Assembly (NCBI GenBank): GCA_964035545.1
Contig: OZ037765.1
Coordinates: 4,040,698-4,104,697 of the forward strand
Origin: Bugula neritina
Taxonomy: Eukaryota > Animalia > Bryozoa
DNA: 64,000 bases
Reading direction: 5' to 3'
A program made the position numbers and the translations under genes. The notes below the pieces were generated by a model that was not told where the DNA came from, ran no database searches, and saw nothing but the letters and a program-made list of their open reading frames with translations. Of this stretch, positions 9,201 to 12,200 are shown one piece after another (positions within the stretch are counted from its first letter, which is position 1; the number at the start of each line of letters is the position of its first letter).

Positions 9201-12200
9201 GGACCCATGCCCCTGACCCCCAGAGGCAATAATTGGATCCTAGTACTAACCGACCACTTTACTAGGTGGGCGGATGCTCTGGCTATCCCAGACGCATCAG
9301 CCCCAACAGTGGCCAGGGCACTAGACCAACACGTATTCTGTTATTTTGGGCTTCCCGAACAGATACACTCTGATCAAGGCGCTCAATTCCAGTCTCAACT
9401 GATGAGCGACCTTTGCCACCTCTGGGGAGTAAATCAGAGCAGGACCACCCCCTACCACCCTCAAGGTAACGGGGTGGTGGAGCGCAACAACCGGATGCTA
9501 GGTGATGCGCTCCGGAGTCTCCTCCTTGGACGAGGTCAAGAGGAATGGGATACGGTGTTGCCGCAAGTCATGCGTGCATACCGTAGCACCCCACACACCA
9601 GTACTGGTGAGACCCCAAACCTCTTGATGCTCGGGAGAGAGACTCGTGTCCCTGACCATCTCACCTATCACGTTCCAGAGCAAGATAACTCAGTCCACGA
9701 GTATGCCAGTGAACTAGTGGAACGGATGAAGGCCGCACACGAGATACTGCGTCAACAGCAGTGGAAGGTGCGGCACGAAGATTCCGATGAACCACCCCTC
9801 TATCAAAGAGGAGATAAGGTGTGGATGGTCAATTACCGTAGGCGCCGCGGACAGGCTGATAAGCTGAAGCCTAAGTTCGTAGGCCCCTACGTGGTCGTCG
9901 AGGCTATGCCCAATCATACGTACAAGATTGAGCGCTCAGGACAGGTGTCTATCCAGAATGAGTCTCGCTTGAAACCGTATTGGGCTAGCCCCGGCGGAGT
10001 GGGAGAAGCCCCCCCGTTGTTAAAGCCCAGGAGGCAGACAACAACGCGCGGGCGACGGCGGCATGGACCTGAATACGAAGTGGTCATACCGCGGGAAGAA
10101 AACTTGGTGAGAGAGGAGCGGCAGCTTTTGTCAACAGAAGCGTGTCCGCCACCGCCAAGTCTAATTCCATCACTTCCAGAAACCGAGCCGGTTCCGGAAG
10201 TGCAAACCCCCACGGAGGGAGGGGCTCCATCCGGAGAACAAGAAGAGGTGGCTGCTGACGGTGAAGTAGAGACGCCATTAGAGGCCCCTACTAACGAACC
10301 GGCAAGCGTGTCACCCCCCCTAGAAAGGGGACAGCGTACGAGGCAACCCCCCGCATACTTGAAGGACTTCGTATGTGACTGCGTTAAAAGCGGCACACAT
10401 GAAAGTCTAGGGGAAAACCGTACGAGAAAAGAATCGAGCAAATGTGGGAGTTGTCAACACCACGTAAATATCAACTTTTGTATCGGCGGAAGTAGAAACA
10501 AAATTCATCCGCCGGGTGCACAAAGTCTTAATCACGCACCCCAACCACGTTGCTCGATCTTTTCATACGCTGATGCAGTCAAGAGTAGACGTGTTTCTAA
10601 GCAGTAGTTCAAACCATTTCACATATTCAGTATGTCTTACGACAACAGATCGTGGGGTGAGTTAACTATATCTTAATACGAAACTAGATTGCATCGCTCA
10701 GCTCCGACTCACTGAGTCAATCGAGCTGGAGATAGGTTAGTGAAATACCGTAGTAAGAACTCAGTTTGACTTAGAGATTTTTATAATCTCATTGCAATAC
10801 GGTTCTATCTGACTATTCACTATCATTAATCTCTACGAGGTAACTGAATTAGGAGTTGCCAAGCTGTTCAAGCTGACAACACAGCAGTGTACTGTACTAA
10901 CACTGTTGAAACTTTTTCAGATTACACTCGACCCGCTACAACCAGGGTACGGGATAGAACACTTCCCGCTCCGTATCCGGAGGACTATGCTAGCGGTGAC
11001 CGGCCTGAGCCACTACGCCGCCGTTGGCGGTGGGTGTCTCCACAAACCGAAGAAGAAATAGAAACAGCCTGGGGGTCCAGAGGACGGACGAGATGCCAGA
11101 TCTGTGGTGAAGATTGCGCCTCTCACCGCTCCCTTAAACTACACGTCAATGCTCATCTCCTACTGACCTTCTGCCCCTGCGGGTACAATGATGTGTATCC
11201 CTACCCCGTCACCAGACACAGAGCGGCGGGCTGTTTCCCTGGAGAAAACTATGTGGTCGACGCTAAGCTGTACCCGGAGTTCCTCACATATATACGACCT
11301 CTGGTAAAGAAGGCCATGCTACTAGCCGTTCTATCCTCGGGGTTCCAACGTGTGTTAGACAACGCCCGCCAACAATCCCCGTTGGTGTCTGACCGCCCTC
11401 CAATTACCTACACCCCCGAGGAAACTACATATCCAGAAGAAGGAGAGATCTCCCCTACCCCGGCGAAGAGACGGACCAGGTCCCCCAGTCCACCCTTACG
11501 CCGCAGACGGACACCGTCCCCAGACCCAGTACGACTAGCTACAGTAGAAGAACGCCTCCTACGATTACAAGAAGAGTTCACCCAGCTGGCGCCAGATCTA
11601 CTCAACACTACCACAGGACTCTTCCAGCTGAAGGGATCCGTATGCCGTATGACACGGAAACTGCGTACATGCCAAGCCAAGCACCGGCGTGCCCAACAAG
11701 GACTCTAGTATGCTACCCAGAATACTCCACATTTGGTGAGGAACCAAACTCGTGCAAATGCTTCACTGCTAGACAGGTTATTCCTTGTCTAATACCACAG
11801 CTAGCTAGTATTCCTCGTCTATCTACAGCTGGCCAATTGTATGCAACGGATCGTTATAACGACTCTGTGTATTATTATGTCTCTTCCTGTATATTATGTA
11901 TTATTTTTGTCCACTGATGTATGCAATTACTATTGAATGTTTTTTTTTATATATATATCAGAAAGATGGCTTTCTGCTGGTGGGGGCGGTGTGGTGGTTC
12001 GTGGAACTACCAGCAGCACAACATGTAGGGTCGCGTAATTGACCCGGAACAATGGATAGCCAATTAGCGTAGTTGATAGTTAGCAGCAATTGTAGTTTCC
12101 CGCTGCTAACTCAGTCGAAGCTAGAGTGTGAAATAGATTAGATGTGTAACTTGTTAGAAATAATGTATCGTGTTTTTATGATGTATAGTTGTGAATAAAA

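Follow-up and report, generated by a model that had tools for sequence, protein, structure and literature searches.

A probably spliced, non-envelope third gene in Gypsy retrotransposons of the bryozoan Bugula neritina

The closest described counterpart of the gene that we analyze here is CERV, which is encoded by the Gypsy element Cer1 of C. elegans. CERV is a nuclear protein that is required for export of the genomic RNA, and its ORF, in the env position, is spliced to gag exons (PMC10309623). According to the parts of that report that deal with the protein, CERV has 517 aa, comes from five exons, and is divided into domains named H, M, and G, with a C4 loop and a G-protein-like domain among its features, and its homologues are described there as confined to nematodes. 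The Gypsy elements of Bugula neritina carry a third gene, ORF3, that resembles CERV as described in the same source: both are non-envelope proteins that are encoded after pol and before the 3' LTR, with a Cys finger, a leucine zipper or coil, and a basic tract (PMC10309623). CERV mRNA is spliced, with an N-terminus in common with gag (PMC10309623), and we infer the same for ORF3 from its splice signals, their phase, and the relative P0023 (see below). The sequence-only reading of this DNA did not recognize a described system, which is too strong, as CERV is of the same kind (PMC10309623). By description, ORF3 differs from CERV in its size (about 270–357 aa) and its domains (C2H2 and C2HC fingers and a C-terminal coil); also unlike CERV, there is an additional small intron and, in subfamily B, a long form.

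In complex retroviruses, Rev/Rex and Tat/Tas are small regulators with basic tracts that are made from spliced mRNAs and are encoded 3' of pol. ORF3 is like them in its position and its basic tracts, but it lies in an element without env and does not match them in sequence or fold; profile and fold searches gave no link to either CERV or Rev. As for other Rev-type features, the basic tracts are at different places in subfamilies A and B, and there were no Rfam matches, and so no Rfam response element, within 4700-12400. The fungal brtn is reportedly another accessory retroelement ORF and is grouped with the additional ORFs of plants. Those plant ORFs (Grande gene23 and Retand) are accessory and partly nuclear, with a proposed regulatory role, but they are mostly antisense and have their own promoter, and the available portion of the source does not mention a zinc finger (PMC7264820). 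The ORF3s of bdelloid LTR retrotransposons are, like ORF3 here, non-envelope and in the env position, and they are described as typically spliced; they differ in being GDSL esterases, DEDDy exonucleases, or transmembrane or coiled-coil proteins, and the word “zinc” is absent from the main text (PMC5408684). The available portions of PMC13524379 and PMC8220671 do not mention the ORF3 family of B. neritina. We found no description of it in the open literature, and Repbase/Dfam, subscription papers, or supplements may contain one. Overall, the protein family appears to be undescribed, and its arrangement appears to be of a known kind.

The stretch of DNA that we analyzed (the window) is 64 kb long and contains four GC-rich Gypsy copies surrounded by AT-rich animal DNA. 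These are A1 (4798..12294, + strand), A2 (16003..23506, +), B (29351..36795, +), and A3 (37152..43828, - strand). A1 has identical LTRs of 305 bp (4798-5102 and 11990-12294) and a target duplication of CTAT. In A2, pol is broken into two frames; A3 has a deletion in pol, and B has a frameshift in the pol tail near 34441-34535. Each pair of LTRs is 100% or 99% identical, and all four copies have a 4-bp target duplication. These features, together with the order of domains in pol (PR-RT-RH-IN, with Pfam matches for RT, RNase H, and integrase), identify the copies as Ty3/Gypsy elements. The target duplications have the form NTAT in all four copies, and all four insertions lie inside 39 kb. In A1, gag (5134..6087, +) has one CCHC knuckle and overlaps pol, which is in the -1 frame; the pol frame (5931..10607, +) encodes protease, RT, RNase H, integrase, and a long C-terminal tail. 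The gag of B (29678-30961) is without the CCHC knuckle of A and has another frame relation to pol. Near the end of the pol tail (10300-10607 in A1 and 34780-35127 in B), both subfamilies have a Cys/His cluster after a proline/acid-rich spacer; this cluster has no Pfam match and is possibly a further zinc site. The primer-binding site is the same in A (5104-5121) and B (29658-29675), and it looks like the complement of the 3' end of a tRNA-Leu. Elsewhere in the window, there is a LINE at 52124-55853 (with a PHD-like ORF1 and an endonuclease-RT ORF2) and two elements with terminal inverted repeats, at 446-1698 (298 bp) and 49605-60126 (630 bp). The second of these encloses the LINE as well as fragments with a weak match to DUF6589. 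An open frame of 214 aa at 47150-47794, which has no Pfam match, is possibly a host exon.

All four copies have an ORF after pol, in the env position, with the splice signals that the sequence-only reading had described, and its coordinates for A1 and B were right. In A1, a candidate mini-exon (10632..10656, +) starts with the ATG at 10632 and has 8 codons plus a G. It is followed by a donor (GTGAGT at 10657) and a small intron (10657..10920, +), with a branch point (TACTAAC, 10895-10901) that borders a predicted hairpin and with an acceptor at 10920. The main exon (10921..11708, +) ends with the stop at 11708, and the product would have 270 aa. In B, the candidate mini-exon (35089..35113, +) starts with the ATG at 35089 and is followed by a donor (GTAAGC at 35114), an intron (35114..35424, +) whose branch point (CTAAC at 35401) and acceptor (35424) lie inside a predicted stem, and the main exon (35425..36218, +), for a product of 272 aa. 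The corresponding parts of A2 are a mini-exon at 21837-21861, an intron at 21862-22125, and an ORF3 exon at 22126-22913 (all +). In A3 (- strand), the intron is at 38575-38311 and the ORF3 exon at 38310-37637, which is truncated in the coil because a deletion near 37637 takes about the last 38 codons.

There is a second potential first exon at the start of gag. The first 14 gag codons plus a G of A1 (5134..5176, +) end at a donor (AAG/GTGAGC at 5177) that is kept in all four copies, and this donor and its counterpart in B (29733) are in phase 1, as had been claimed. Splicing from the gag donor of A1 would give a product of 277 aa, with no internal stop. As for the mini-exon, the pattern of ATG, 22 nt, and GTRAG occurs once per element, at that very place, and AGTATG and the donor are kept between A and B, although just some 5 of the 21 intervening bases are identical. 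The shorter pattern G/GTRAG is found at five places per element, which is roughly the chance level for 7.5 kb, so the donor motif alone is little proof.

Is ORF3 made by splicing? One RNA run (X1; share 0.07, depth 2-7) yielded 21 and 4 short contigs that contain bits of the exons. The introns and junctions are uncovered in these contigs, so this run counts neither for nor against splicing. In run X2, none of the 15 listed joints on A (of 109) was at a predicted splice site. Relatives of ORF3 are more informative. Just ahead of the junction, 49 of 49 B-type relatives and 24 of 25 A-type relatives have a residue that a YAG acceptor would allow (these are counts of amino acids in sequences that are related by descent, and the A-type count excludes the off-target pattern rows P0082 and P0118). 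This residue changed independently several times, and every change is YAG-compatible. In the single A-type exception, P0023, a Met and 13 further residues, the last of which is Glu, stand in place of what the intron would encode, with the boundary exactly at the Asp of the junction. Considering the protein alone, without DNA context, this N-terminus equals the gag exon in its length and its final residue. When we scored the 767 Met-started 14-mers of the window against P0023, two gag starts and one other 14-mer tied for the top score, and the gag start of B ranked sixth; the likeness to gag had a shuffle p of 0.058, and eight N-termini of homologues scored as high or higher. Because P0023 has a gag-like start that is joined exactly at the acceptor, the gag donor is favored, and this protein points to the gag donor rather than to the mini-exon. 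Overall, these patterns make it likely that ORF3 is made by splicing and that 5134..5176 is exon 1 of the main ORF3 mRNA. We consider that the acceptor is very probably in use and that the gag donor probably is; for the 8-codon mini-exon, the two outcomes seem evenly balanced.

The sequence-only reading had proposed a retained intron. The splice signals are indeed present in both A and B, but it was overlooked that the intron of B doubles as coding sequence. The small intron of A is non-coding: it has a GC content of 0.38, versus 0.56, none of its three frames is free of stops, and it tolerates indels of 1 nt. It is nevertheless better conserved than synonymous sites (5/264 versus 92/1267 changes, p = 4e-4) and than the LTR plus UTR (p = 0.047). 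In B, an unspliced frame starts from the ATG at 35145 and is continuous with exon 2, which gives a form of 357 aa with a 93-aa acidic extension. An extension of at least 80 residues above the acceptor was found in 33 of 70 B-type relatives (almost all of exactly 93 residues) and in 1 of 102 A-type relatives; these counts rest on the starts chosen by gene callers and are lower bounds. Were the B frame free to change, some 15 nonsense changes should have accumulated on the tree of intact sequences, although this tree by its construction leaves out broken lineages; taken by themselves, the three long stems yield a p of roughly 0.05, as judged from branch lengths. The extension also has a faint match in two more distant members (E = 0.02). 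It is Leu-rich, has a net charge of -12 over its first 60 aa, and is predicted to be disordered, and it is about as conserved as the zinc domain (0.71 versus 0.69). Its substitutions are not conservative (mean BLOSUM score of -0.71, versus a single-step expectation of -0.44), so the conservation is possibly at the level of RNA. Taken together, the extension is likely to be under coding constraint plus constraint at the RNA level.

These results bear on whether ORF3 is translated without splicing, with a start at ATG 35145 in B and farther downstream in A, so that the splice-like motifs would serve RNA structure instead. The open frame of B and its conserved Met fit with this explanation, as does the lack of junction reads in run X1 (in which the junctions are uncovered). 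However, in A1, no Met is encoded from the acceptor up to the zinc domain, the intron of A is closed by stops whichever frame is read and accepts indels of 1 nt, and acceptor-compatible residues are found family-wide, to which P0023 can be added. We regard unspliced expression as most improbable.

ORF3 is a real accessory gene that is held by purifying selection. Between A1 and A3, it has 19 synonymous and 6 non-synonymous changes (dN/dS = 0.11, p = 3e-7), which excludes the neutral evolution that would have spoken against the original proposal. This dN/dS is as low as for gag (0.15) or pol (0.23) in the same comparison; between A1 and A2, there are too few changes in ORF3 (2 versus 1) to estimate the ratio. 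Among the variants in the B exon in run X2, 26 of 33 that are listed are synonymous (40 of 74 variants are listed), and all five indels listed for B are in the 3' UTR. The protein was said to be without a signal peptide or transmembrane segment, and this holds: the maximum Kyte-Doolittle hydropathy over 19 aa is 1.24 in A and 0.58 in B. Given the lack of a hydrophobic segment, ORF3 is not an envelope protein.

The models of A and B are alike, with one confident domain and a long C-terminal helix. In A1, the folded domain (11013..11372, +) comprises a W-helix, a C2H2 finger, a CxC..H..C finger, and two helices, and AlphaFold's pLDDT is 93-98 over residues 31-150 (in 10-residue blocks). The zinc ligands are invariant or nearly so among 60 diverse members. 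The first finger is a C2H2 finger, as claimed (C-x2-C-x12-H-x3-H, as in Kruppel-type factors). The CxC finger is present as well, but the X4 spacing between its H and C is that of A1; the spacing is X5 in 72 of 120 sequences and X3 in 36 of 120. The arrangement is unlike that of tandem Kruppel-type fingers, in that a link of 4 residues, not a canonical linker, leads to the CxC..H..C finger. In the recognition helix, position +6 is Val or Leu in 106 of 120 sequences and position -1 is Ser or Thr in 108 of 120. The C-terminal heptads are borne out by a long helix with heptads and a basic tail (11526..11702, +; residues 202-260 in the AlphaFold model) and by matches to generic coiled-coil folds. 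Prediction of a homodimer, without an alignment, scored 0.02 and speaks neither for nor against a dimer. Of the Arg/Ser/Pro tract, which was described as a feature of the protein, we found that it is present in A1-like copies and in P0002 but is not family-wide, and most A-type members are without it. Basic clusters are found elsewhere instead: RKR-like in the linkers of 19 of 26 B-type members and in the tail of 64 of 74 A-type members.

ORF3 had no clear match to a characterized accessory ORF family by Pfam or profile, or by the fold of the full-length model, which was another way that the proposal might have failed. At E <= 0.01, PF00096 matched 7 of 60 members and PF13894 matched 9 of 60, and no curated Pfam family covers the domain at its gathering score. 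The profile matches to finger 1 are DNA-binding C2H2 proteins, in single fingers (the best was SALL3, E = 4e-6). Fold searches with the full-length model gave only generic C2H2 or coiled-coil matches (the best Foldseek E value was 0.5, and the matches listed from VIA were taken up by the coil), and the ESM Atlas gave only unnamed or generic C2H2 clusters. Searches yielded 72 relatives of A, 53 of B, and 101 cluster representatives. Four of the 30 clusters that we examined have named members, all of them uncharacterized proteins from Watersipora or Bugula. In a quick tree of the domain, the A and B types together form one clade (SH-aLRT of 98), with Bugula-linked sequences nearby. No credible DNA of ORF3 relatives was found in viral, metagenome, or genome contig collections; L001, a weak match of 23 aa in a viral contig, was rejected as a relative. 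The same two-finger domain is found in bryozoan proteins annotated as “C2H2-type domain-containing” (XP_067940964.1 and XP_067944745.1 from Watersipora; KAF6040923.1 and KAF6037488.1 from Bugula). In these, the domain is sometimes doubled, and some have a coil, but they differ from ORF3 in having other N-termini and in being annotated as uncharacterized host genes. P0220 and P0222, one of which is a Bugula gene model, have a common N-terminal region and end in different copies of the zinc domain. This suggests either that a set of shared exons is joined by splicing to one or another domain exon or that the acceptor is captured by host genes.

Subfamilies A and B are 93-97% identical in pol (6390-10491 versus 30858-34948). 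Outside of pol, their identity is 74% in the LTRs, about 70% in 5' gag, and 31% in the amino acids of ORF3, and the cores of their introns cannot be aligned (293 of 500 shuffles were equally good). The dS between A and B is 0.37 in 5' pol and 0.08 in mid-pol, and this difference suggests that recombination exchanges pol between the subfamilies. The joint divergence of the LTR, gag, intron, and ORF3, beside a shared pol, suggests that ORF3 acts on a subfamily-specific target in cis and not on the integrase.

The zinc domain might instead be a module for targeting integration, analogous to a chromodomain, that is spliced onto the integrase. Donors of phase 1 are found in pol's frame at 9607/34075 and 10657/35114; the mini-exons of both subfamilies are in this frame, and in B, there is no stop before the donor. 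P0081 has the motif of the pol tail in frame with the zinc domain, NTAT is duplicated at all four insertions, and the best profile matches, SALL3/4, have structures on AT-rich DNA. But a short AT-rich target preference is common among Gypsy integrases alone, and in all three A copies, pol stops 24 nt before the mini-exon. Furthermore, A and B have nearly the same integrase but ORF3s of 31% identity, and no fused long form was seen among proteins of 1044-2980 aa (this last is a weak argument). A fusion to the integrase seems very doubtful to us.

The rapid divergence of ORF3 beside a nearly identical pol would also be expected of a chromatin or anti-silencing factor that shields the copies from piRNA or heterochromatin silencing. 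The zinc domain is soluble and probably nuclear, and the copies are young, as their LTRs are identical or nearly so. Within a subfamily, though, evolution is purifying, the fold searches found no enzyme or chromatin-reader fold, and there is no positive evidence for such a role, which we think quite unlikely.

Our preferred reading, to which we assign a probability of roughly 40%, is that ORF3 is a nuclear regulator of the element's unspliced RNA, similar to CERV or Rev. It is favored by the precedent of CERV and by the two strong donors, which must stay unused in the genomic RNA. The default splice of the LTR transcript would join the donor behind gag codon 14 to the acceptor in front of ORF3, which in A would give the protein of 277 aa. 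The protein would enter the nucleus through its basic tracts, multimerize via the coil, and bind a subfamily-specific element, either in the 5' leader and gag or in the conserved small intron. The gag-pol RNA, with both strong donors unspliced, would then leave the nucleus and be translated and packaged. Transcripts of B that keep the small intron would additionally yield the form of 357 aa with its acidic N-terminus.

That ORF3 diverges between A and B together with the LTR, gag, and the intron, while pol remains 93-97% identical, speaks for an RNA regulator. So does the predicted structure of the RNA: relative to shuffled sequences, the mean z is -1.6 to -2.5 for gag, pol, and the small intron, versus -0.9 and 0.0 for the ORF3 exons and +0.6, 0.0, and -0.5 for the LINE and host DNA. 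Segments of 260 nt within 5180-10920 and 29740-35424 reach z values as low as -7. Ordered RNA structure is thus predicted element-wide, for the most part within the sequence that would be lost through the long splice. The branch point lies at or in a predicted stem in both subfamilies; the stem of B reaches significance (z = -2.7), that of A does not (z = -0.64), and the alignment of the A1, A2, and A3 introns contains no compensatory pairs. We rejected the small intron as a uniquely structured response element, as segments of pol fold equally well or better, and the lack of any advantage of this intron over gag-pol in folding energy counts against an RNA regulator. Also on this side are the best matches of finger 1, which are to DNA-binding C2H2 proteins, and the B extension, which resembles an activation domain. 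Finally, splicing of the env type works without an export protein in simple retroelements, so the layout of ORF3 can do without such a protein.

The C2H2 finger and the acidic form of B place an activator of the LTR close behind an RNA regulator. ORF3 would then be a DNA-binding transactivator of its own LTR, like Tas of foamy viruses; possibly, a promoter internal to the element, where pol ends, would use the 8-codon mini-exon, and the acidic extension of B would be the activation domain. Finger 1 resembles classical C2H2 transcription factors, the LTR and ORF3 diverge together, and the host-annotated relatives in bryozoans have one or two of the domains, with a coil in some. The B extension is acidic, Leu-rich, and predicted to be disordered, is open in 33 of 70 relatives, and is faintly present in two distant members, and AGTATG and the donor are conserved islands. 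But the residues at +6 (Val/Leu in 106/120) and -1 (Ser/Thr in 108/120) are unlike those of most base-reading fingers, which weakens this reading. A is without the acidic extension, the B extension has substitutions that are on average non-conservative, so that its conservation may be at the RNA level, and we saw no TATA-like motif immediately upstream of the mini-exon in A or B. We hold a transactivator to be possible but tentative. The two functions could also be combined in one gene with two forms, of which the spliced short form would act in RNA export and the intron-retained, acidic long form would activate the LTR, with the two-finger domain being exchanged with host genes of bryozoans; this combination we consider unlikely.

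For the question of how LTR retrotransposons without an envelope export their intron-containing RNA or activate themselves, CERV is the single worked-out case that we found. A second, unrelated family in the position of CERV would suggest that regulators like Rev and Tat were invented repeatedly outside of the retroviruses. Because the zinc domain is common to the retroelements and to bryozoan genes, capture by the element versus domestication by the host becomes a testable question.
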